Positions 1,452 to 52,851 of a DNA stretch of 64,000 bases are shown one piece after another. This DNA comes from a virus (Duplodnaviria; Heunggongvirae; Uroviricota; Caudoviricetes). The stretch is from the IMG/VR virus record IMGVR_UViG_2706796290_000001, positions 34,171 through 98,170 of that record; one strand, 5' to 3'. Both the position numbers and the translations under genes were made by a program. Numbering within the stretch: the stretch's first letter is position 1; each line of letters opens with the position of its first letter. The notes under the pieces were generated by a model. The model worked only from the letters and a program-made list of their open reading frames with translations, made no database searches and was not told the DNA's origin.

Positions 1452-2345
1452 ATGAGATATCACCTATATTCAATCAACACGGGAGAGGTAATCTCTCTCG
1501 ATGCTACCACAAGCTTTAGTGAAAGCCATAAGGCCAATGTCACAGAGCATCCTGTGGAAATGGGCACACCAATTAGTGACCATGTGTTCTTATCCAACCC
1601 AACACTTAACCTGAAGGGTATCGTGACAGATTATGATGTAGTTAATAGTGAATATATTGACTTGTCAAGCTTCTCGGTATCCTCAATAGTTCAAGATGTA
1701 ATTAGTCTTTTTAAGGACCCTACAGATGTTGATAATATTTCAACACAGGATGACACTAAGTTAGACTTTAGGTCAATTGCTGTTGCAAACGCCTTAAAGA
1801 AAGCTTTCTATGATCGCCATGTTTTCTCTTTGTTTGTTTTAGATGACACAGAAGATGCACCACCTATTGATCACTACAACACAGTGGTAATCGATGGTCT
1901 AACCTTCACTAGAAGTGCTGACAATGGTGGTGAAATGATTGAGGTTGATATTGCACTCAAGCAAATACGATTAGCCAAAATCAGAAGATCTGAAGTGACA
2001 AAAGCCGAGAAGGATGCCTTAGATAAAGCTGTTTCTCAGACAGCTAAATCAAACGCTACTAAAGATAGTACTAGTGGTTCATCTAAGAGTACTAAAGATG
2101 GTAAAGGGACTAAAACAAGTGGTGATGGTGCCTTTTCAGATCCTTCAGATATTAGCAAACAATTTGATGTTGGTGCTAAAGAAGGTGAAGGTGCTGGAAG
2201 TTTAGTTGGTAAGGTTAGATCCAAGACAGCAGCTATGGCTAAACAAAAGATGGTAGATGCAGAAGATGCTAGAAAGTTAGCCGAAAGAAACCGAGCAGGT
2301 ATCTCTGAAGGTAAAACTTACGGAACTACTTATGGTGGTAGATAA
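1452..2345 (+). CDS. Tail/baseplate-associated protein (position equivalent to Mu gpN-like protein); Lys/Ser/Gly-rich C-terminus
   Basis: 297-aa ORF with RBS directly after the TMP. Assignment is by synteny only. Confidence 0.3.
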   Translation: MRYHLYSINTGEVISLDATTSFSESHKANVTEHPVEMGTPISDHVFLSNPTLNLKGIVTDYDVVNSEYIDLSSFSVSSIVQDVISLFKDPTDVDNISTQDDTKLDFRSIAVANALKKAFYDRHVFSLFVLDDTEDAPPIDHYNTVVIDGLTFTRSADNGGEMIEVDIALKQIRLAKIRRSEVTKAEKDALDKAVSQTAKSNATKDSTSGSSKSTKDGKGTKTSGDGAFSDPSDISKQFDVGAKEGEGAGSLVGKVRSKTAAMAKQKMVDAEDARKLAERNRAGISEGKTYGTTYGGR

Positions 2346-2359
2346 TTTAAGGAGTATGT

Positions 2360-2707
2360 ATGGAGCAATTAAAATATTATGGTTGTAGGGTAGCACTTTA
2401 TAACGATAAAAACTACACATGCTTTATCAAGCTCTCAGATTTTACTTACCACTTAGCCTTTAGGTACAACACCTTTGCTGGTGCATATATGTTAACTGTA
2501 TATGATGCCAATGGTAATACTCTGATATCAAACAAAATGGTCAAACCTGACAGGATGTTTGATATTAGACCTAGAGAGAATTCTGTAGAATCTTTGAACT
2601 TGGTATTTAATAAAATATTCCCAAATGCTGATGTAAATTATGACAAATGGGATGACAACATGATGTGCACAGCCTATCTTACACGATGGGAGAATGTAGA
2701 GCAATAG
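2360..2707 (+). CDS. Hypothetical baseplate-module protein
   Basis: 115-aa ORF with RBS GGAG, inside the structural operon. Confidence 0.3.
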   Translation: MEQLKYYGCRVALYNDKNYTCFIKLSDFTYHLAFRYNTFAGAYMLTVYDANGNTLISNKMVKPDRMFDIRPRENSVESLNLVFNKIFPNADVNYDKWDDNMMCTAYLTRWENVEQ

Positions 2708-34090: not shown

Positions 34091-35860
34091 ATGGGAAAAA
34101 ATATTACCCGTAAAAGAGAGGATGGCCGTAACACCCGTAACCGTGACTACAGACAAGAAATTGGAGAAAGAGATTTATACATCAGTGAGAAGCACAAACA
34201 ACAACGTGAAGAGTATATTAAACAAAACCCAATTGTTCCATTAAACCCTAAACAACGTAGATATATGGAACTATTAGATGAGAAGAAGTGTATCATTGCT
34301 ACAGGCTTTGCAGGTTGTGTTGATGCTGATACAGAATTCTTAAGTGAATCTGGCTGGAAGCGCATGGCAGATTATGTTGTTGGTGACAAAGTCATGCAAG
34401 TCAGTCAAGAAGGTTTATTGGGAAGTTTTGTTGACCCAGTTCAATATATTAAACGTGAGTGTGATTGGTTCTACCACTTCAAGACGCATCGTGGTATTGA
34501 TCAAGTTTTATCCGAAGAGCACCACGTGGCGTATACGATAAAAGATCGATTACGGCTGAACAAAGTGTTAGTTGCTGATCTTGTAGAAAGTTTAGATTAC
34601 AAACCTAATGGCTTCCTAGGTAAAATTCCTTGTATCTATAGATTTAATGGCAATAGTTTAGGTTTAAGTGATTGGGATATTAGACTTGGTGTTGCTATCA
34701 AAGCGGATGCACATCTCGCTTCTGAGACAACAGGACGATATGTCTTTCGGCTAAAGAAAGAGCGTAAGGTTGAAAGACTTAAGTGGATTTTGGAAAATAT
34801 GGGGCGTGATTATAAACTACGGCACTTAGAAGGTGGGTATACTGAAATTCAAGTCTATGCGCCAGAACACACAAAAAACCTTGCAGATTGGATGTTTTGC
34901 TCAAAAGAAGATGCAGAAATAATTATGAGTGAATATCAATACTGGGATGGGGATTCAAAACCAGTTGGGTCTAGGTTGCCGAGATTCTCGACATCTAGAA
35001 AGACAGAAGCCGATGCCATGCAGTACTTTGCAAACATTTGTGGGTATCGTGCAAGTGTTACTGAGGTGACTTCAGATTGTACGTTTAAGCATGTAAAAAA
35101 GGTTTACAAATATGAAGGTCGTGTGATGTACACAATTAGTTTCACGAAACAAACGCACATACGCTTGACACCAAAAAATCGTGTTACAGGAGAGATTGTG
35201 AAACCAGATAAAATCCCAAGTGTTGATGGGTATAAATATTGTTTTGAAGTTCCATCTGGTTTCTTGTTACTTAGAAGAAACGGCAAGGTGTTTGTCACAG
35301 GTAATACATCTAAAACATATATCCCCACAGCTATCTTTGCAGATTTATACCGTACAGGAAAGCTTAAGAAAATTGTTTTAATTCGACCAGCCGTGTCTAA
35401 TTCTAAGAGTTTAGGTTACTTTGCAGGGACTATTGAGCAAAAGAGTTCTGTTTGGTTGGCACCTGTTATTGATGTGCTATACAAACGTCTAGGTCGTCCA
35501 GCAGCCCTACAGGCTATCGCTAATGGTGACATTGAGTTTGTTCCTATGGAAACAGTTAAAGGTCGAAGCTTTGATGAAGACACAGCAGTTATTGTTACGG
35601 AAGCTGAAGATTGTACCAAAGAGGAAATCATGTCTCTACTAACCCGACAAAATGGTTGTAAGATGGTCATTGAAGGTGATGTTCGACAAAGTGCACTTCG
35701 AGAGGAAAGTGGTTTGAAGTTGGCTATTGATCTTTACATGAAGCATAAATCCCTTCAGGAAACTATGGGGTTAATTAACTTTGATGATGTACAGGATATT
35801 GTCCGAAGCCCTGAATGTAAAATTTGGATTAAAGTGTTCGTTAAGGAGAAGTTAATGTGA
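34091..35860 (+). CDS. phoH: PhoH-like ATPase interrupted by an intein within the Walker A motif
   Basis: LNPKQRRYMELL...IIATGFAG | intein | TSKTYIPTAIFADL...IVLIRPAV...LGYFAG matches the PhoH core GPAGTGKT...LTRPAVEAGE.LGFLPG. Confidence 0.8.
   Translation: MGKNITRKREDGRNTRNRDYRQEIGERDLYISEKHKQQREEYIKQNPIVPLNPKQRRYMELLDEKKCIIATGFAGCVDADTEFLSESGWKRMADYVVGDKVMQVSQEGLLGSFVDPVQYIKRECDWFYHFKTHRGIDQVLSEEHHVAYTIKDRLRLNKVLVADLVESLDYKPNGFLGKIPCIYRFNGNSLGLSDWDIRLGVAIKADAHLASETTGRYVFRLKKERKVERLKWILENMGRDYKLRHLEGGYTEIQVYAPEHTKNLADWMFCSKEDAEIIMSEYQYWDGDSKPVGSRLPRFSTSRKTEADAMQYFANICGYRASVTEVTSDCTFKHVKKVYKYEGRVMYTISFTKQTHIRLTPKNRVTGEIVKPDKIPSVDGYKYCFEVPSGFLLLRRNGKVFVTGNTSKTYIPTAIFADLYRTGKLKKIVLIRPAVSNSKSLGYFAGTIEQKSSVWLAPVIDVLYKRLGRPAALQAIANGDIEFVPMETVKGRSFDEDTAVIVTEAEDCTKEEIMSLLTRQNGCKMVIEGDVRQSALREESGLKLAIDLYMKHKSLQETMGLINFDDVQDIVRSPECKIWIKVFVKEKLM
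34316..35305 (+). mobile_element. Intein (330 aa), probably with an endonuclease domain, inside PhoH Walker A
   Basis: Begins CVDADTEFLSESG and ends ...NGKVFVTGN before T+1. Internal LGVAIKADAH resembles a degenerate LAGLIDADG motif. Boundaries verified on nucleotides. Confidence 0.75.
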
Positions 35861-45079: not shown

Positions 45080-45286
45080 ATGAGTGAATTCAATAAGGGT
45101 GACCGTGTAGTTATTGAATTCTCACCTGTATGGAATGTACTATTTAATCCAAAGAAAGTTTTTAGTGGGAATATTGGTAAGATAAAAGATAAATTTGAAT
45201 ATGCAGGTTGTTTATTTTACAGGGTTTATAATCCAGAATGGGAGTTTGATGTTAATGTCAAAGCTTCTTTGTTAACTAAATTTTAA
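45080..45286 (+). CDS. Small KOW-like paralog family member (YNPEW)
   Basis: NKGDRVVIE ... GNIGKIKD ... YNPEW. Confidence 0.5.
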   Translation: MSEFNKGDRVVIEFSPVWNVLFNPKKVFSGNIGKIKDKFEYAGCLFYRVYNPEWEFDVNVKASLLTKF

Positions 45287-45295
45287 AGGTATACC

Positions 45296-45682
45296 ATGAA
45301 ACAAATTATTTTCCTAGATGATGAAAGAGTAATCCAAGATGTAACTTGGTTAGATTATTCTAAAATGGATAACTCTAAGTGGTCTGGTGCTTATGTCATC
45401 TCCCAAAGTTCAGCTTCTCGTTTAATCTCATACATTAAACATTATGGGAAATACTTTGACTGGGAAAATACTTTGTTTTCCTTAGACCATGACCTTCAGG
45501 ATTTTGATGGGGAGGAAGAGTCTACAGGTTATACTTTCATTAAATGGTTGGTTGACTTTATGGTTAAGAACGAAATTTCCCTCCAACATCTCCATGTAGT
45601 TGTGCACTCACAAAATCCTGTTGGTAAAGAAAACATTGAAAAATATATCAGTAATGCTAAACTACACTATTTAGAATTCTAG
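45296..45682 (+). CDS. Hypothetical protein
   Basis: 128 aa. Confidence 0.4.
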   Translation: MKQIIFLDDERVIQDVTWLDYSKMDNSKWSGAYVISQSSASRLISYIKHYGKYFDWENTLFSLDHDLQDFDGEEESTGYTFIKWLVDFMVKNEISLQHLHVVVHSQNPVGKENIEKYISNAKLHYLEF

Positions 45683-45688
45683 GAGATT

Positions 45689-45907
45689 TTGATGGGATAT
45701 TACAAAGTAGGTGATGTAGTTGAAATTACCAAACTAATAGCTTTAGATGAAGAACTTGGTATAAAAGTTGGGGATATTGCGAAGGTCCAACGAGTAAAAG
45801 ATTATGATGATGGTGATCAATACATTATCTGTTATAATCCAAAATGGAATAGATTAATTGATGGATTAAGGCGAATGGTCCCCCGACAGTTAAAGAAGGT
45901 GAAGTAA
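45689..45907 (+). CDS. Small KOW-like paralog family member
   Basis: KVGDVVEITKL...GIKVGDIAKV...CYNPKW. Confidence 0.55.
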   Translation: MMGYYKVGDVVEITKLIALDEELGIKVGDIAKVQRVKDYDDGDQYIICYNPKWNRLIDGLRRMVPRQLKKVK

Positions 45908-46119
45908 TGGCAGAAGCAATACTAGATGTAAAAAACCTCAAGGCACCAATTGTAGTAGTCCGTTTTACGGTGTTTGGTGATAGGGCAATGTATAAGTTGT
46001 ACTTGAAAAAAGATTTTGGGTATTACTGTGAAGATCAACCTAGTGCTTGGTTTGATAGTAGTCTTGTAGATCACTTAAATGATTGGCAATATCATTCACA
46101 CCAAGAAATTTATTTGTAG
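45907..46119 (+). CDS. Hypothetical protein
   Basis: 70 aa. Confidence 0.35.
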   Translation: MAEAILDVKNLKAPIVVVRFTVFGDRAMYKLYLKKDFGYYCEDQPSAWFDSSLVDHLNDWQYHSHQEIYL

Positions 46120-46127
46120 GAGTTATT

Positions 46128-46349
46128 ATGGCTAAATACAAAGAAGGTGATAAAGTTGTTGTCACAAAGCTTGTTTCTACTGACTATGAAAGAGGTATAC
46201 GTGTTGGACACATAGCTAAGGTTGTCACAGTTCGAGATCTAGATGGAGCTGCCTATTGTCACAACCCCGAATGGGATTATAGAGGGTTACAACGTCAAAA
46301 TAGAACAATGCTATCCTACCAAATTGAAAAATGTGAGGTGCACAAGTGA
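46128..46349 (+). CDS. Small KOW-like paralog family member
   Basis: KEGDKVVVTKL...GIRVGHIAKV...CHNPEW. ATG 46128 after AGGAG. Confidence 0.55.
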   Translation: MAKYKEGDKVVVTKLVSTDYERGIRVGHIAKVVTVRDLDGAAYCHNPEWDYRGLQRQNRTMLSYQIEKCEVHK

Positions 46350-46573
46350 ATGTGGATTTTAATCAAGATACAGGTAAAGGTTTAACGATTGGGGAAATTC
46401 GTTCTCGTGCACAAAAATATGCTACACATTATGAAATTCAAGGAAATGAGGTGGTATACTACGCTAAGGATCAAATAGGTCGTTGGTGCTATGTTGATGA
46501 TGAAAGTGGTGGAGGTTGGCCTACACATTCTTGTGAATGGGATCGTCTGGATAATGAACTGAAGCCACTTTAA
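46346..46573 (+). CDS. Hypothetical protein
   Basis: 75 aa. Confidence 0.35.
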   Translation: MNVDFNQDTGKGLTIGEIRSRAQKYATHYEIQGNEVVYYAKDQIGRWCYVDDESGGGWPTHSCEWDRLDNELKPL

Positions 46574-46601
46574 TGTGGTTTTACTTTTTGGAGATTGTGT
46601 G

Positions 46602-46790
46602 ATGTTTAAAGTAGGTGATAAAGTAGAGGTGATAGAGGTTTTAGCTGCCGATGAGGAAGCTAATATCAAGGTTGGTGATGTAGCAAAAGTCACTGTGGTG
46701 AGAGGTCCTTTTTGGATTCAATGTGAAAATCCTGAATGGGTAGACGGTTTCATGCCTATGAGAGAATACCAAATCAAGAAGGTAGGATAG
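46602..46790 (+). CDS. Small KOW-like paralog family member
   Basis: FKVGDKVEVIEVL...IKVGDVAKV...CENPEW. Confidence 0.55.
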   Translation: MFKVGDKVEVIEVLAADEEANIKVGDVAKVTVVRGPFWIQCENPEWVDGFMPMREYQIKKVG

Positions 46791-46793
46791 TTA

Positions 46794-46987
46794 TGCGATA
46801 TAATATTGGTGATAAAGTAGTTATCACAAGAGTTTCAGTAACAGATACTAGATTTGGGGTGAAGGTTGGAGATGTAGCCAAGGTAGTTGAACAAGATCAC
46901 TGGGATCGAAATTGGTACTATTGTAGAAACCCTGATTGGAAACAAGATATAGTCAATATGAAAAATGACCAACTTAAAAAACTCTGA
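46794..46987 (+). CDS. Small KOW-like paralog family member
   Basis: NIGDKVVITRV...GVKVGDVAKV...CRNPDW. Confidence 0.55.
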
Positions 46988-47005: not shown

Positions 47006-47034
47006 GTTGACAGGAAAATTAAAACCCACTAACA
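47006..47034 (+). promoter_or_regulatory. Sigma70-like promoter upstream of the MoxR-like cassette
   Basis: AAAAAGTTGTTGACA-N17-TAACAT. Confidence 0.4.
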
Positions 47035-47123
47035 TAAGCCTCATAGAGAACAAGCAAACAAAGTTCTTAATGAAATACTTGAATAAACAGCACATTGGTG
47101 CACAAACTATCTAGGAGATATTA

Positions 47124-48317
47124 ATGGATTTACTTATTGGTCATTCTTACCAGTTAATCAACACTAAAGATCCAGCTTTCATGTTCACAACTGGTTTTAG
47201 TGACCCTAAGACAAATAAAGTCATTAAAGATGCTATTATTAAACCTTACAGCAAAGATGATGATGGTGATGTTTTTGCTTATGCATACTTCCCAGATCGT
47301 CAAGACACTATTATCAATCCAGATCACAATGTGTTGATCATTCGAAGTGAATTTGATTTGTTTAAAGAGGTTGGTGCTGGTGATCAATCTCAACCAGAAG
47401 TGGATGGAATTGAAGAAAGTGAAGTATTCTCTCACAATCTTAAGAAGATGTTCCAAGAGATGGTTGATAAAAACCTAGGCTCTGAAGAGATGCAATCGAA
47501 GATCACTGAAACTATCCGTGAAACTGTGCTTGAGCAAGCTCCACGACCACTTGAAGTGAAGTTTGGTGAGAAGACAACTGTAATTGGTACTGCTCACGTA
47601 ATGCTTGCAGAAGCTTTAAAACGCTTAAATGCAACAAAGAACATCATGTTAGTTGGTCCTGCTGGTTCTGGTAAGACTTACCTTGCAGCACAACTTGCAG
47701 AGTCTTTACAGCTTGACTTCTCATCAATTTCTTGTAGCTCTGGTATGTCTGAATCAGTGATTACTGGTTGGTTGTTACCTGTTGATGGTGGTGCATTTGA
47801 ATACCATGAAAGTGACTTCATTCGAATTTACGAAAATGGTGGTGTGTTCTTGTTTGATGAAATGGATGCTGCTGACCCATCTATCTTATTGATCATCAAC
47901 CAAGCATTAGCAAACGGTAAAATTACTGTTCCACAACGTAAAGGTAATACAGAAGTTAAACGACATAAAGACTTCATTTGTGTTGGCGCATGTAACACAT
48001 TTGGTCGTGGTTCTAACTTAATGTACTCTGGTCGTGAACGATTGGATGAATCAACACTTGACCGTTTCCGTTTAGGTTTGATGGAAATGGATTACGACAA
48101 GCTCCTTGAAGAAAAAGTTGTTGATAAAGCTGTTCGTGAATGGGCTTGGCAAGTACGTGCTCGAATTCAGGAAAGTGGTTTACGCCGAGTGATGTCAACA
48201 CGTTTCATGATCGATGCAACTAAGTTGTTACAAAATACTGATGCAACAATGCAGAAAGTAAAAGATATCTTCTTTGTTGGTTGGTCTGATGACGAGAGAC
48301 GTAAAACTGATTTATAA
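47124..48317 (+). CDS. MoxR-like (AAA_5-type) AAA+ ATPase with about 150-aa N-terminal extension
   Basis: Walker A VGPAGSGKT, Walker B FLFDEMDAA, sensor region ACNTFGRGSN, arginine-finger-like ESTLDRF. Confidence 0.55.
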   Translation: MDLLIGHSYQLINTKDPAFMFTTGFSDPKTNKVIKDAIIKPYSKDDDGDVFAYAYFPDRQDTIINPDHNVLIIRSEFDLFKEVGAGDQSQPEVDGIEESEVFSHNLKKMFQEMVDKNLGSEEMQSKITETIRETVLEQAPRPLEVKFGEKTTVIGTAHVMLAEALKRLNATKNIMLVGPAGSGKTYLAAQLAESLQLDFSSISCSSGMSESVITGWLLPVDGGAFEYHESDFIRIYENGGVFLFDEMDAADPSILLIINQALANGKITVPQRKGNTEVKRHKDFICVGACNTFGRGSNLMYSGRERLDESTLDRFRLGLMEMDYDKLLEEKVVDKAVREWAWQVRARIQESGLRRVMSTRFMIDATKLLQNTDATMQKVKDIFFVGWSDDERRKTDL

Positions 48318-48335
48318 CAAAAACTTCCCAAGAAA

Positions 48336-48368
48336 CCCCTAAAGGAATTCCTTTAGGGGTTTTATTTT
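48336..48368 (+). terminator. Rho-independent terminator (palindrome family)
   Basis: CCCCTAAAGGAATTCCTTTAGGGG followed by TTTTATTTT. Confidence 0.65.
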
Positions 48369-48381
48369 GAATAAATTTTAC

Positions 48382-48410
48382 TTGATTTAAAAATAGAATT
48401 TGTTTAGAAT
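48382..48410 (+). promoter_or_regulatory. Sigma70-like promoter
   Basis: TTGATT-N17-TAGAAT. Confidence 0.4.
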
Positions 48411-48446
48411 CTACTTAGTTATTAAGCTCAATAAGAGGATATCTCA

Positions 48447-49340
48447 ATGTATAAATCTGTTGAAAATGTTAAAGGTTTGCACGGTAAAGTGGCGATCGTT
48501 AAATATAGAAATGTTTCTGATGCTATGGACCACTATAAAAAATATGATGTGGACATCCCTTTCAAGCACAATAAAGGTAAGGTTTCAGAGTATCGTGGTG
48601 GTCATCATAGTACTGATTGGACAGGTTTTAGTGATCAACGTCACTTTGAACAAACTATGCTTCATGGTGATAAAATCAAAGCGATTGAGATTGAAGAAAT
48701 TCAAGCACCAGAAGTTAAGGTTGAGTCACGTAAACGTAAACGCCATAAAGGGCCTATCGGTGATACTTTAGATATTCATGCAGTATATCGTGGTGAATTG
48801 GATCGTGCATGGACCTATACCAAACGTGATATGCATGATGGTGGTATGAAAAACATCACCCTCCTAATTAACATTGGTGATAACTGTGGCGTTTCCTCAC
48901 AGGCATTAGGGTGGCGTGGTGCAGTGGCATTGAAAGTTTGTGATGTGATGACTGAAGCTGGTTATAATGTTCGAATCATTGCTAACCAAATGACTGAAGA
49001 TTTAACCCGTGATGACGATGGTTATGGCTACAATTGCACAACTGTTAAGGACTTTGATGAATACTTGGATGTGCCTAAGCTTGCTGCAATCTTCTGCCGT
49101 GCAGGTTTCTTCCGTTCAGTAATCTTCACCACAATTGTTTATGAAGCTGAATTACTGGGGAAACGTGTAGGTTACGGTTTAGGTCGATCTATCAAGTCAC
49201 ACAGTGAGGAAGGTAAGAAGCTAATCGAACATGTGCACCAAGATGAAGGATATATGGTGGTATTCCCTTCGGTGAATGGTAAAGAGGATGCTTTAAATGC
49301 CATGAAGGAGATCTTAAAGCCTTATTTAATTGAGGAATAA
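48447..49340 (+). CDS. Hypothetical protein, candidate partner of the MoxR-like ATPase
   Basis: 297-aa ORF with RBS AAGAGGA, immediately downstream of the ATPase. No recognisable motif. Confidence 0.4.
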   Translation: MYKSVENVKGLHGKVAIVKYRNVSDAMDHYKKYDVDIPFKHNKGKVSEYRGGHHSTDWTGFSDQRHFEQTMLHGDKIKAIEIEEIQAPEVKVESRKRKRHKGPIGDTLDIHAVYRGELDRAWTYTKRDMHDGGMKNITLLINIGDNCGVSSQALGWRGAVALKVCDVMTEAGYNVRIIANQMTEDLTRDDDGYGYNCTTVKDFDEYLDVPKLAAIFCRAGFFRSVIFTTIVYEAELLGKRVGYGLGRSIKSHSEEGKKLIEHVHQDEGYMVVFPSVNGKEDALNAMKEILKPYLIEE

Positions 49341-49342
49341 TC

Positions 49343-49621
49343 ATGGATCGTCAAGAGATGATTAAGAAGTATCCTATCGGCTCTAAGCTGGTAGGGAGAT
49401 ATCTAGGGCACAAAAAGTCTTCAATTGAAATGATTTGTAAGGTTGTTGGTTATTCTGCTTTCAGAACTTCGATTTTAGTCTATAATCCAGAAATAATTGG
49501 TCATAATGGTACTGGAAGATGTGTAGATCAAACAGCATCTAGAATTTCTGGGGAAAAGATAAAAGATCTTTATGGTAACCATTGTTGGTATGTTAAATAT
49601 GAAGATTTGCGAGGTAATTAA
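49343..49621 (+). CDS. Small paralog (YPIGSK...YNPxI subgroup)
   Basis: YPIGSKLVGRY...LVYNPEIIGHNGTG...CWYV. Confidence 0.5.
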   Translation: MDRQEMIKKYPIGSKLVGRYLGHKKSSIEMICKVVGYSAFRTSILVYNPEIIGHNGTGRCVDQTASRISGEKIKDLYGNHCWYVKYEDLRGN

Positions 49622-49914
49622 TGATTTTAGAAGGGCTAGAAGACATTGCTAGAGAATATCCAATAGGTTCGAAGGTTATATGTAATGGGAATAATCTTAG
49701 TTATGGGGGGAATGGAGAAGAATTAGTTTGTAAAGTTCTTGGCTATAGCCGATGGGGATATGGTTTGTTACTATACAACCCTGACATTCTAGGACATTCA
49801 GGGAATGGTTTATGTTTAAATGGTTTGCATGAAGAAGTTGATCAAGGCTACCTTGAGAGAAACTACCGAGAGAGTTGCTGGTATATTAGCTACAACATGG
49901 TTAAGAAGGTGTAG
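49621..49914 (+). CDS. Small paralog (same subgroup)
   Basis: YPIGSKVICNG...LLYNPDILGHSGNG...CWYI. Confidence 0.5.
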   Translation: MILEGLEDIAREYPIGSKVICNGNNLSYGGNGEELVCKVLGYSRWGYGLLLYNPDILGHSGNGLCLNGLHEEVDQGYLERNYRESCWYISYNMVKKV

Positions 49915-49944
49915 TATACCTATAGATAAAATGTGGAGGTATAA

Positions 49945-50217
49945 ATGGTTGCTGTTCCAAAAGATAAATTCCCTATTGGATGTAAAGTAAGGGTGATTAG
50001 TGGAGATGGTAGGTGGAAAACTGGAGATATTGGCAAGGTGATAGGCTATGGTGGTACAGATGATATTGTTATATACAACCCACGTATAGAAGGACATAGT
50101 GCATCAACTCACTGTTTTGATAAGAATGGTTGTAGGATCAAGGATGAAGTAAGGTTAAAATATGCAGGTCATTTATGGTACATCTCTATAAGAAGTACAG
50201 AAAGAATTGGAGGTTAA
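49945..50217 (+). CDS. Small paralog (same subgroup)
   Basis: FPIGCKVRVISG...VIYNPRIEGHSAS...LWYI. Confidence 0.5.
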   Translation: MVAVPKDKFPIGCKVRVISGDGRWKTGDIGKVIGYGGTDDIVIYNPRIEGHSASTHCFDKNGCRIKDEVRLKYAGHLWYISIRSTERIGG

Positions 50218-50766: not shown

Positions 50767-51231
50767 ATGGCTAAACGTTTTAAGTATACTAAACTTCAAC
50801 AATCTCAAAAAACTTCAAAATTATCATCTATTTGCAATAAAGTGACTACTTCTGTAGCTCGCTTTTTTCGTGTTGCCTTTAAAAACTTCTTAAGTATGTT
50901 TAAAGGTGGTTCTCCACAGGATATCATGCGAGATAGATTTAAAGAGTGGCACGAAGATGTAAACCTTGCAAATAAGAAGGTGACTTATCAAGTTGGTCAG
51001 AGAGTAACCATTAATGATGTTTCTTATTTTGAGAAATACAGAGGTTTTCATGCTGGTGATGTTGCAAAAATTACCAAATTGATTAATGAGGATGGTGTTG
51101 AGAAGTTAGCACTCTTCAATCCTAAATGGATCACTGCGAAAGATGAACTTGGTTTGGGTTGTGTAATTGTTGATCCTAAGAAATGCATGGTGGAGATTGT
51201 TGGTGTAAAATCTGGGGGTGTAAATGTATAA
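50767..51231 (+). CDS. Paralog family member with N-terminal basic extension
   Basis: VGQRVTIND...GDVAKITKL...FNPKW. Confidence 0.45.
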   Translation: MAKRFKYTKLQQSQKTSKLSSICNKVTTSVARFFRVAFKNFLSMFKGGSPQDIMRDRFKEWHEDVNLANKKVTYQVGQRVTINDVSYFEKYRGFHAGDVAKITKLINEDGVEKLALFNPKWITAKDELGLGCVIVDPKKCMVEIVGVKSGGVNV

Positions 51232-51472
51232 TGAAGGTCTACCTGTAGATGGTGCTAAAATAGTGGTTAACAACCCTGATGGCATATCCAGAAGCACCTA
51301 CAACGTAAGAGAAAACGATGTGGCGAAAGTAGTGGGGAGAATTCATGGTTCTGGTTACAGTATACTAGCATACAATCCTGATTGGAAAAATAAAGAGAGG
51401 GATCACGATGCATTTACATACAAGGGACCTTGTGTGATATTGTGTCGCAGTGAGTATGAGGTGATTGAATAA
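51224..51472 (+). CDS. Small KOW-like paralog family member
   Basis: AKIVVNNPD...NDVAKVVGR...YNPDW...SEYEVIE. Confidence 0.5.
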   Translation: MYNEGLPVDGAKIVVNNPDGISRSTYNVRENDVAKVVGRIHGSGYSILAYNPDWKNKERDHDAFTYKGPCVILCRSEYEVIE

Positions 51473-51789
51473 TGGAAATGTGGGATGGTTATGGTGTGTC
51501 AAGCTATGCAAAAGGTGAATATGATGCATCAGAGGTTGTTGTAGGTTCAAAGATAGTTATAACAAAACCTGACAGTGTTTCTATTGCAAGGAATGCTCTT
51601 AATGGTGATATTGGAAAGATCGTACATGTATGTAAAGTTGACAACAAGCCATGTACATATCTGGCATATAATCCAAAGTGGAAATGTTGTGACGATGGTA
51701 TGCAGAGGGGTTTTGGATATGGGGGTTTGTTTATAATACTTTGGAGAAGTGAGTTTGAGGTGATTCGATATGAAAACAAAAGTTGGTGA
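51472..51789 (+). CDS. Small KOW-like paralog family member
   Basis: GSKIVITKPD...GDIGKIVHV...YNPKW...SEFEVIRYE. Confidence 0.5.
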   Translation: MEMWDGYGVSSYAKGEYDASEVVVGSKIVITKPDSVSIARNALNGDIGKIVHVCKVDNKPCTYLAYNPKWKCCDDGMQRGFGYGGLFIILWRSEFEVIRYENKSW

Positions 51790-51985
51790 TAAAATCAAAA
51801 TAACCTCTCTTGATAAGTAAAGTGATGCCACAGGAGTAGAAATAGGACATGTTGGTAAAGTTGTTGAGGTTTACCCTGCTGGGTGCTTTGCTGAGAATCC
51901 ATTGTGGGGTAAAGGTTCAACAGGATTCTTTAACAGTGAATTTGAGGTCTTAAATAAATCTGAGGGTTTGAACGATGACTGAATG
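51770..51985 (+). pseudogene. Paralog family member with in-frame TAA (codon 17) - pseudogene or readthrough candidate
   Basis: MKTKVGDKIKITSLDK*SDATGVEIGHVGKVVEV...ENPLW...SEFEVLNK aligns throughout with its paralogs. The stop at 51818-51820 falls at a variable position within the domain. Confidence 0.5.
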
Positions 51986-52244
51986 TTATTATTGGGATGT
52001 CCCATCACAAACTAAAGAGCCTACAATAAAAGTTGGCGATAAGGTTGAGATAATTGATCCTCATCAGCTTGACAAATTCCTTGGAATTCAGGTTGGGGAT
52101 GTGGCTAAAGTGGTTTATGTAGGAAATGATCATTTAAGATGTAATAATCCAAGATGGAATATCCGTGATCATGAAATCGGCAGAGTGATGGGTCTAAATC
52201 AAATTAAGCTGATTGTGAATACTTATAAGGAAGAATCTCTATGA
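51975..52244 (+). CDS. Small KOW-like paralog family member
   Basis: IKVGDKVEIIDP...GIQVGDVAKVVYV...CNNPRW. Confidence 0.55.
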   Translation: MTECYYWDVPSQTKEPTIKVGDKVEIIDPHQLDKFLGIQVGDVAKVVYVGNDHLRCNNPRWNIRDHEIGRVMGLNQIKLIVNTYKEESL

Positions 52245-52498
52245 AAGAACCAGAAATTGGCACCAAAGTTGTAATTGTTAATCCTGATGACCGTTCTCGT
52301 GCAGAAGGTATTGTTGAAGGTGATGTAGGTAAAATACTCAAATGTGAATCTAGCTTCAAAGCAAATGAGTTGCTATTACTTGTGCACAACCCTAAGTGGG
52401 AAAACATGCACGAAGGTGTTCTTGATTGTAAATCACCTTGTCATCTTGTATACTTATCTGAATGTGATATTTACGAAGAATGCCTTAAGGGGAATTAG
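52241..52498 (+). CDS. Small KOW-like paralog family member
   Basis: EIGTKVVIVNPD...GDVGKILK...HNPKW. Confidence 0.5.
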   Translation: MKEPEIGTKVVIVNPDDRSRAEGIVEGDVGKILKCESSFKANELLLLVHNPKWENMHEGVLDCKSPCHLVYLSECDIYEECLKGN

Positions 52499-52500
52499 TT

Positions 52501-52851
52501 ATGAGTGCTAAGATACCAGAAATACCACCTATACCAAAACCAGAGCCAGAAAAACCTTATGAAATTTCTCAGACTGTACATAGTCGATTTAATCACCAGA
52601 AGTGTCAGTACGAAGTATTTTCTGTAGGTGAGAGGGTGAGAATATCCCTTTATGGATCTCAATTCCTGAATAATTATGGTATTTACGATGGTCACGTAGG
52701 GAAAATTGTAGAGATAAAAAAGGTTGATATGGGGAATGGAAGTGTTGTTGCTAAGATTTACATAAAAAACCCACTATGGCACTATAAATTACCCGACAAA
52801 GACCCTACAATAATGGAGTTTTTGGATTATGAAGTTTCCAAATTGGAGTAG
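52501..52851 (+). CDS. Paralog family member with N-terminal Pro-rich extension
   Basis: VGERVRISL...GHVGKIVEI...KNPLW. Confidence 0.45.
   Translation: MSAKIPEIPPIPKPEPEKPYEISQTVHSRFNHQKCQYEVFSVGERVRISLYGSQFLNNYGIYDGHVGKIVEIKKVDMGNGSVVAKIYIKNPLWHYKLPDKDPTIMEFLDYEVSKLE

Follow-up and report, generated by a model that had tools for sequence, protein, structure and literature searches.

MoxR-class AAA+ ATPases typically work together with a cofactor carrying a VWA domain (PMC7159879), and each MoxR-VWA system known so far is devoted to maturing or remodelling one client (PMC7159879; PMC13036017). In the NorQ-NorD system, a finger of the VWA domain of NorD enters the pore of NorQ and touches the helix-2 inserts, the C-terminus of NorD binds the post-sensor-1 loop, and ATP-driven rotation remodels the client, a mode that has been proposed to be general for AAA+/VWA pairs including midasin (PMC13036017). 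[quoted passage not shown] The MIDAS consists of DxSxS following strand β1 and further Thr/Asp ligands, with conserved aspartates ending strands 1 and 4 (PMC7159879). Viruses are also equipped with such pairs: a widespread viral two-gene cobST cluster has been described (PMC8651126), and the MoxR-type ATPase and VWA protein of Acidianus two-tailed virus have been studied in connection with tail development (PMC7159879). Here, we describe two adjacent genes of a tailed phage (Caudoviricetes) lying in a stretch of 64,000 nucleotides (positions 34,171 to 98,170 of IMG/VR record IMGVR_UViG_2706796290_000001; hereafter the window), which encode a MoxR-class ATPase and a partner of the family DUF7192. 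It is likely that the two proteins are the components of an AAA+ remodelling machine that belongs to the MoxR/VWA type and is specific to phages, acting in a NorQD/CobST-like "finger-in-pore" fashion.

An earlier reading made from the letters of the window alone (the sequence-only reading) had regarded these genes as an insulated cassette of a MoxR/AAA_5-like ATPase and a partner with no recognisable motif, embedded in an array of small paralogues. Both open reading frames (ORFs) were found exactly at the coordinates given there (Table 1). Over a 2.5-kb region the sequence is 100% identical to that of Acinetobacter phage YMC13/03/R2096 (NC_027332). Identity over the same region is 95-98% for seven relatives that infect A. 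baumannii and have genomes of ~97 kb, among them AM24, Herod, Mithridates and Bestia. In existing annotations, the ATPase (gp070) is called "porphyrin biosynthesis" or "AAA family ATPase" and the partner (gp069) "hypothetical protein." The partner is not devoid of a recognisable signature: it matches Pfam DUF7192 (PF23822) over its full length (residues 6-296) at 1e-90, with 304.3 bits against a cut-off of 27.

Co-occurrence and distribution of the two genes

Viral contigs and species genomes were scanned with a hand-made degenerate DNA motif for the DUF7192 segment G-D-x-[LVIF]-D-[IM]-[HQ]...G....A-W. DUF7192 is encoded by each of the 60 viral contigs that were found (60/60), and the ATPase gene lies directly upstream on the same strand in every one of those with room upstream (54/54). 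The contigs carrying the pair form 33 clusters at 70% identity, and the two genes usually abut or overlap, the median gap from stop to start being ~1 nt. The other scan, covering one genome from each of 185,579 species (596 Gb), gave 13 motif matches, only two of which are true DUF7192 genes; both are accompanied by the ATPase and both are on contigs of metagenome-assembled genomes (MAGs). The remaining 11 (L087-L093 and L095-L098), from Bradyrhizobium and other alphaproteobacterial MAG contigs, were excluded by hidden Markov model as chance matches or unrelated genes; since they cluster in related Alphaproteobacteria, they probably represent one unrelated conserved gene that fits the pattern. 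On the basis of these scans, the module is essentially confined to phages.

Sampling from either side gave the same picture. Starting from the partner, an AAA_5 gene was found immediately upstream in three of three unrelated metagenomic phage backgrounds, in one of which a small acetyltransferase gene is placed between the ATPase and DUF7192; starting from the ATPase, DUF7192 was found directly downstream in all four metagenomic homologues. Among isolates, DUF7192 follows the ATPase directly in Staphylococcus Kayvirus Stab21 (1.7e-92), mycobacteriophage Whirlwind (2.5e-84) and Sinorhizobium phage phiM5 (1.8e-22), and also in Listeria phage LP-125 and Alteromonas phage R22Y, where the scores are just over the Pfam threshold. 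The ATPase and DUF7192 are an obligate module. The partnership supposed in the sequence-only reading is thus borne out by 54 viral contigs and five unrelated isolate lineages, and DUF7192 is kept with the ATPase rather than being conserved independently of it.

Two ATPases of this kind have another neighbour, namely that of an Enterococcus phage (a 380-residue protein) and a cyanophage "CobS" (a 709-residue CobT-like "peptidase"). Profile comparison revealed no similarity of DUF7192 to either neighbour. The Enterococcus protein is encoded directly downstream of the PHROG-249-type ATPase gene of phage vB_CECAV_04 (5945-7087 (+) of contig L009) and has no Pfam match; ATPases of this family may thus have a third kind of partner, so far unrecognised.

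The ATPase

The ATPase matches the full Pfam AAA_5 model (positions 1-139 of 139) with residues 173-315 at 2e-17, and is assigned to PHROG 249 at 9e-72. As the match begins at residue 173, the 150-residue N-terminal extension claimed for the protein is also real, ~150 residues preceding the AAA+ core. When a profile of the family made from 32 homologues was compared with the PDB, the AAA modules of midasin were matched at 1e-75, CbbQ at 6e-18, CobS at 8e-15 and NorQ at 4e-14. In Pfam, the lid of the ATPase itself gave a weak match to CbbQ_C, the C-terminal domain of CbbQ/NirQ/NorQ. The closest structures are those of NorQ, CbbQ, midasin, dynein and McrB. It falls in with those MoxR ATPases that depend on a VWA protein, and not with clamp loaders or packaging ATPases.

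The catalytic residues are intact. Both Walker motifs noticed in the sequence-only reading are invariant in homologues, as are sensor 1 (N291), the arginine finger (R314) and sensor 2 (R360) in 32-34 homologues, the latter two lying downstream of the sensor-1 strand. The two hairpin inserts typical of the MoxR class (helix 2, residues 216-228; pre-sensor-1, residues 266-279) are present in an AlphaFold 2 (AF2) model, the former with strands 216-219 and 225-228 and with invariant G215, P219, G223 and Y227. Judging from its motifs, gp070 is an intact MoxR-class (clade 7) AAA+ ATPase, because it matches AAA_5, its family profile matches midasin, CbbQ, CobS and NorQ, and the catalytic and helix-2-insert residues are invariant.

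The N-terminal region is less uniform. In the AF2 model, a β-rich domain specific to the clade precedes a linker, modelled with low confidence, and helices that reach to about residue 142, and according to the alignment the ATPases of other clades have a different, helical N-terminus. A derivation of this domain from the small paralogues flanking the pair, which look alike by eye, was rejected (hmmsearch E ~7; hhalign probability 5%).

The partner

The partner is also assigned to PHROG 35469, which like DUF7192 is a family of unknown function. DUF7192 comprises 5,072 representatives at 50% identity, and the searched literature does not mention it. In an AF2 model of the partner (pLDDT 77, pTM 0.77, both being the model's own confidence scores), an α/β core extends from about residue 136 to the C-terminus. 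The predicted core is Rossmann-like, with a six-stranded sheet and flanking helices, as in the VWA fold. A Foldseek search of BFVD with this model returned members of DUF7192 first, and then phage VWA and CobT-like proteins with E-values of 3e-6 to 1e-3. The predicted structure and these modest scores are consistent with a VWA-like fold, for which the sequence-only reading had advised that the partner be checked.

The same reading had pointed to the segment DNCGVSS as a possible MIDAS. Its location is right, as the loop NIGDNCGVSS (residues 142-151) connects β1 with α1 at the position of the MIDAS, but it is degenerate and does not represent a conserved motif. Of 161 DUF7192 members, 40% have N at position 142 and 24% have D, and at the end of putative strand β4 the family has no conserved acidic residue, G246 being conserved there instead. 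With no MIDAS motif, the partner would have to bind a client in some way other than the usual one through a metal.

The most conserved segment of DUF7192, residues 97-122, lies directly before the VWA-like core. It has a pLDDT of 42-51 and is probably flexible according to the model. From the analogy with the finger of NorD and the shaft of CobT, it is a candidate for the element that would enter the pore of the ATPase.

Proposed mechanism

A two-component remodelling machine is favoured because the MoxR motor is intact, the helix-2-insert residues are invariant, and the obligate neighbour has a predicted VWA fold accompanied by a conserved, seemingly flexible segment. An outline of the process may be as follows: gp070 most likely forms a hexameric ring, the pore of which would be lined by the conserved helix-2-insert hairpins. 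DUF7192 would interact physically with this ring as a dedicated adaptor, compact, with a VWA-like core that lacks a canonical MIDAS and is preceded by the conserved segment. By analogy with NorQD, CobS-CobT and midasin, the adaptor would dock on the ring and put a finger-like element, for which residues ~97-122 are proposed, into the pore. ATP hydrolysis would then twist or pull the adaptor, and the surface of the adaptor together with the variable N-domain of the ATPase would grip a client protein, which would consequently be remodelled. As the pair sits among small genes of early type, its client is probably a protein complex, of the host or of the phage, that is targeted soon after infection begins.

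Several results weigh against this reading. No profile links DUF7192 to any VWA protein, and Pfam yields DUF7192 alone; a PDB search was empty for the partner both as a single sequence and as a profile of 68 sequences, and hhalign gave a probability of 0.1% for DUF7192 against the cyanophage CobT-like protein. The canonical MIDAS is missing, D.[ST].[ST] occurring in the β1-α1 loop of only two of the 161 members. The candidate finger precedes β1, whereas that of NorD is inserted within the VWA domain itself. The strong terminator between the two genes of this phage means that their stoichiometric co-expression is not assured here, and the searched literature holds no interaction, expression or phenotype data for any member of the family.

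A bolder version of the mechanism is improbable. DUF7192 and the ATPase together would be a "mini-midasin," related to the motor of eukaryotic ribosome assembly but free-standing and made of a single module, with an adaptor that is MIDAS-like yet independent of metal; early in infection, it would strip or remodel a universally conserved host complex at the expense of ATP. Ribosomes, RNA polymerase or a common immune hub would be candidate targets, and the retention of the module across phages of Gram-positive, Gram-negative and actinobacterial hosts would then be explained.

Organization of the locus

Features of the locus are collected in Table 1. The sequence-only reading gave the unit promoters of its own, at 47006 and 48382. 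The hexamers do exist (the first begins at 47007), but 22 promoter-like sites in the region compared with 29.5 +/- 6.1 in shuffled sequences represent no enrichment over chance, and they are no more than promoter candidates.

Table 1. Sequence features of the ATPase-DUF7192 locus (window coordinates)
Feature	Position	Strand	Remark
Sigma-70-like promoter candidate 5' of ATPase, TTGACA-17-TAACAT	47007..47035	+	10/12; unverified
Shine-Dalgarno-like AGGAG, 6 nt 5' of ATPase ATG	47113..47117	+	Direct sequence reading
MoxR-class AAA+ ATPase, 397 aa, gp070 of YMC13/03/R2096, PHROG 249	47124..48317	+	
Predicted clade-specific β-rich N-terminal domain, residues 1-85	47124..47378	+	AF2 model
Walker A, GPAGSGKT, residues 178-185	47655..47678	+	G178, G181, G183, K184 invariant in 32-34 homologues
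Helix-2-insert β-hairpin, residues 215-228, GWLLPVDGGAFEYH	47766..47807	+	Clade-7/MoxR hallmark lining pore
Walker B, FLFDEM (D245, E246; DEMD = residues 245-248)	47847..47864	+	Invariant in homologues
Pre-sensor-1 β-hairpin insert and sensor-1 strand, residues 266-291	47919..47996	+	Model strands 266-268, 277-279, 284-290
Perfect 14-bp palindromic hairpin and T run between ATPase and partner genes	48332..48369	.	Hairpin itself 48332-48363; probable terminator
Sigma-70-like promoter candidate for partner, TTGATT-17-TAGAAT	48382..48410	+	9/12; unverified
Shine-Dalgarno-like AAGAGGA 5' of partner ATG	48433..48439	+	Direct sequence reading
DUF7192 protein, 297 aa, gp069, putative VWA-fold partner of ATPase	48447..49340	+	
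Most conserved DUF7192 segment, residues 97-122 (R97, G105, D106, D109, G116, A121, W122)	48735..48812	+	Conservation
Predicted VWA-like α/β core, residues 136-297	48852..49337	+	

The palindromic terminator described in the sequence-only reading is strong indeed: the hairpin has a dG of -22.2 kcal/mol (z = -3.96), none of 200 shuffled sequences folds equally well, and with its T run it is probably an intrinsic, bidirectional terminator. It is not placed at the end of the unit, however, but between the two genes. The unit is therefore split rather than insulated, as the next gene starts at 49343, 3 nt past the stop codon of the partner, and the terminator is specific to the lineage. The spacer of 129 nt from the stop of the ATPase gene to the start of the partner gene is likewise an oddity of this lineage, since the pair abuts in 33 distinct relatives. 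In Mithridates and Bestia, the spacer carries an extra reverse-strand gene, which does not occur in the window, for a 291-residue protein with a DUF4379 treble-clef zinc-finger domain; in Mithridates it is located at 1741-2616 (-) of contig L099, equivalent to the window spacer 48318-48446, and the exact palindrome (30 nt) is retained at the convergent junction with the inserted gene. This arrangement suggests that the spacer is a variable insertion site, which has received a mobile or moron gene, rather than a designed insulator. The two ORFs share a reading frame, their starts being 1,323 nt apart, and six in-frame stop codons in the spacer make a read-through fusion of them implausible.

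The pair belongs to a long run of small genes on the same strand, and its embedding in a paralogue array has been confirmed. A family of 11 small proteins brackets it, with five members in 45080-46987 and six in 50767-52851, and a family of three lies directly downstream of the partner gene in 49343-50217 (+). Members of the larger family have ~65-155 residues, are encoded on the (+) strand and have in common the pattern VGDxV...G(I/V)KVGD(V/I)AKV...NP(E/K)W; the smaller family is distantly related to it (E ~1e-4). Nine paralogues sampled across both families gave no significant Pfam match. Another ORF in this region, of 128 codons at 45296-45682 (+) and 1.4 kb upstream of the ATPase gene, matches Pfam cREC_REC, "Cyclic-phosphate processing Receiver domain" (PF20274, E 1.4e-16). 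It may be related to cyclic nucleotides, and so perhaps be a gene against signalling-based defence among the small early-type genes. A dCMP deaminase gene is found 3.7 kb upstream of the pair in the window.

Neighbourhoods in other phages

In a census of 33 representative pairs, DUF3846 was a neighbour in six, Nmad5 in four, a PAPS-reductase-like gene in three and a RadC-like JAB gene in two, and ART-PolyVal genes and divergently transcribed terminase genes also recurred. All of these associations are weak and heterogeneous, with a maximum of six of the 33 clusters. In many podovirus-like contigs (L004, L019-L025), the pair heads an operon running divergently from the genes of the small and large terminase subunits, and is preceded by 0.35-1.5 kb in which no gene is called (shortest in L004); DUF3846 is often a few genes downstream of the pair in these contigs, and likewise in phiM5 (L008). 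Genes of nucleotide metabolism are found as well, such as that of dCMP deaminase directly upstream (metagenomic contig L002), kinases (phiM5 and the Enterococcus phage) and MazG (Kayvirus). As for published information on these neighbourhoods, the paper on polyvalent proteins does not mention MoxR, vWA or DUF3846, the literature on Nmad5 is tangential, and transcriptome papers on Kayvirus and Listeria phages contain nothing specific on the two genes.

Alternative explanations

The sequence-only reading had raised the possibility of a host-takeover or anti-defence device, in which a host immune or housekeeping complex would be dismantled or sequestered by an ATP-driven process early in infection. 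A long run of small same-strand genes is typical of early regions, the cREC_REC gene is close by, and such an activity would suit the recurrent neighbours seen elsewhere (DUF3846, Nmad5, RadC-like JAB, PAPS-reductase-like and ART-PolyVal) and the frequent position of the pair at the head of an operon diverging from the terminase genes. The N-domain of the ATPase varies between clades, as would be expected of a target-recognition module under selection. On the other hand, each of the neighbour associations is weak, and no known anti-defence family was matched beyond generic P-loop hits: against PADLOC, the ATPase gave only short P-loop matches (best 1e-5, ~37 residues) and the partner none. In addition, both the partner and the AAA+ core are well conserved whether the host of the phage is Gram-positive, Gram-negative or actinobacterial, which fits a universal or phage-internal client better than a defence system of one lineage. 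We consider such a device unlikely.

A phage-internal client is the essence of another explanation, in which the pair would serve as a chaperone in the assembly or maturation of something made by the phage, be it a part of the virion, the replisome or a metallo-enzyme of nucleotide metabolism. It has precedents in Acidianus two-tailed virus, where a MoxR/VWA pair has been implicated in the development of the tails, and in NorQD and CbbQO, which act on enzymes, and known systems of this type serve one client (PMC7159879; PMC13036017). The vicinity of the terminase genes in many podovirus-like contigs and of nucleotide-metabolism genes in others would be in line with such a role, and strict conservation throughout whole phage genera suggests a core function. 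The terminase genes, however, are on the opposite strand in a separate transcription unit, no single candidate client gene co-occurs consistently, and the structural genes of the present phage lie a long way from the pair. There is only a small chance that this explanation is correct.

It is highly improbable that the two genes are a true cobaltochelatase module of the viral CobS/CobT kind, in other words auxiliary metabolic genes that would hijack the host CobN to raise cobalamin synthesis. This identity is implied by the name of PHROG 249, "porphyrin biosynthesis," and by the RefSeq and JGI labels on the protein or its homologues ("porphyrin biosynthesis" or "cobaltochelatase CobS"); viral cobST clusters have been proposed to hijack the host CobN in this way (PMC8651126), and Foldseek ties the predicted fold of the partner to phage CobT-like VWA proteins. 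The ATPase, however, scores 24.8 bits with the NCBIfam CobS equivalog (TIGR01650), the cut-off of which is 558.55, and its family profile is far nearer to midasin than to CobS. The partner has no CobT match in Pfam, neither profile similarity to the cyanophage CobT-like protein nor a MIDAS motif, and less than half the length of phage CobT proteins (560-860 residues). No ORF of the window is of CobN size, the largest having 923 codons. Furthermore, phages of Staphylococcus aureus and A. baumannii retain the module, and these bacteria are not known to possess the aerobic CobN pathway. The cobaltochelatase identity was rejected, and the label "porphyrin biosynthesis" is regarded as annotation carry-over.

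That the genes are merely functionally independent neighbours, the ATPase acting alone (for example in replication or packaging) beside an unrelated 297-residue protein, might be read from the strong terminator and the spacer between them here and from the unrelated reverse-strand gene that relatives carry there, but is scarcely credible in view of the constant order and strand in all 54 viral contigs and five isolate lineages, where the genes usually abut or overlap, the grouping of the ATPase with VWA-dependent MoxR ATPases instead of clamp loaders or terminases, and the predicted fold of the partner, which is that of the canonical MoxR cofactor.

Significance

A MoxR AAA+ ATPase with a VWA cofactor is a known kind of system, also in the form of viral cobST clusters (PMC8651126), and what is expected of MoxR systems is not overturned by the present pair. 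In comparison with the searched literature, two things appear to be new: DUF7192 as a compact cofactor with a predicted VWA fold, lacking a MIDAS and unrecognisable by sequence, and its strict coupling to a midasin-like AAA_5 ATPase in a module that is restricted to phages and spread over those of very different hosts. DUF7192 thereby obtains a predicted fold and a role that can be put to the test. The pair would define a compact and tractable type of MoxR-cofactor system that lacks a MIDAS, and it could show how an adaptor engages a client without a metal site. The module is present in therapeutic or well-studied phages, namely Staphylococcus Kayvirus (phage K-like), Listeria P100-like phages, cluster L mycobacteriophages and A. 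baumannii myophages, and also in thousands of metagenomic phages, and identification of the client would reveal a step of infection common to very different phages. The analysis also corrects a widespread mis-annotation ("porphyrin biosynthesis") by which counts of "auxiliary metabolic genes" are inflated.

Comparison with known systems

NorQ-NorD and CbbQ-CbbO resemble the phage pair in that two adjacent genes are co-transcribed and the ATPase has the helix-2 and pre-sensor-1 inserts, and the finger-in-pore action described for NorQD (PMC13036017) is likely to apply to the phage pair by inference. They differ in the size of the cofactor, NorD having more than 600 residues and CbbO ~760 in comparison with ~290 in the phage partner, which shows no recognisable VWA sequence signature and has a degenerate MIDAS. 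Unlike NorQ and CbbQ, the phage ATPase has an extra N-terminal region of ~150 residues. A further difference is that the family described here is confined to phages; the clients of NorQD and CbbQO are cNOR and Rubisco.

Midasin (Rea1), which acts in eukaryotic ribosome assembly, is a single polypeptide of ~4,900 residues in which six AAA modules are fused and a working MIDAS binds UBL domains. In the PDB it is the protein closest in sequence to the ATPase family, and several of its AAA modules are matched. In contrast to midasin, the phage ATPase has a single module and is presumably a homo-hexamer, and its partner is a separate protein without a MIDAS motif.

The viral cobST clusters of cyanophages, pelagiphages and haloarchaeal tailed viruses also combine a phage AAA_5 ATPase with a VWA-fold partner; the ATPases have the PHROG 249 label in common, and Foldseek ties DUF7192 to the phage CobT-like proteins. 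These CobT-like partners, however, have 560-860 residues and a MIDAS, and the candidate of cyanophage S-H9-2 is encoded upstream, whereas DUF7192 is encoded downstream, has fewer than 300 residues and no MIDAS, and lacks profile similarity to the CobT-like protein. The phage ATPase, moreover, stays below the CobS equivalog threshold.

Acidianus two-tailed virus offers another case of a virus-encoded MoxR/VWA pairing. It is an archaeal virus and its proteins are of very different sizes; its VWA protein ORF892 was a weak and non-significant Foldseek match of the partner (rank 46, E 0.13), and a virion-associated role is not supported for the phage pair.

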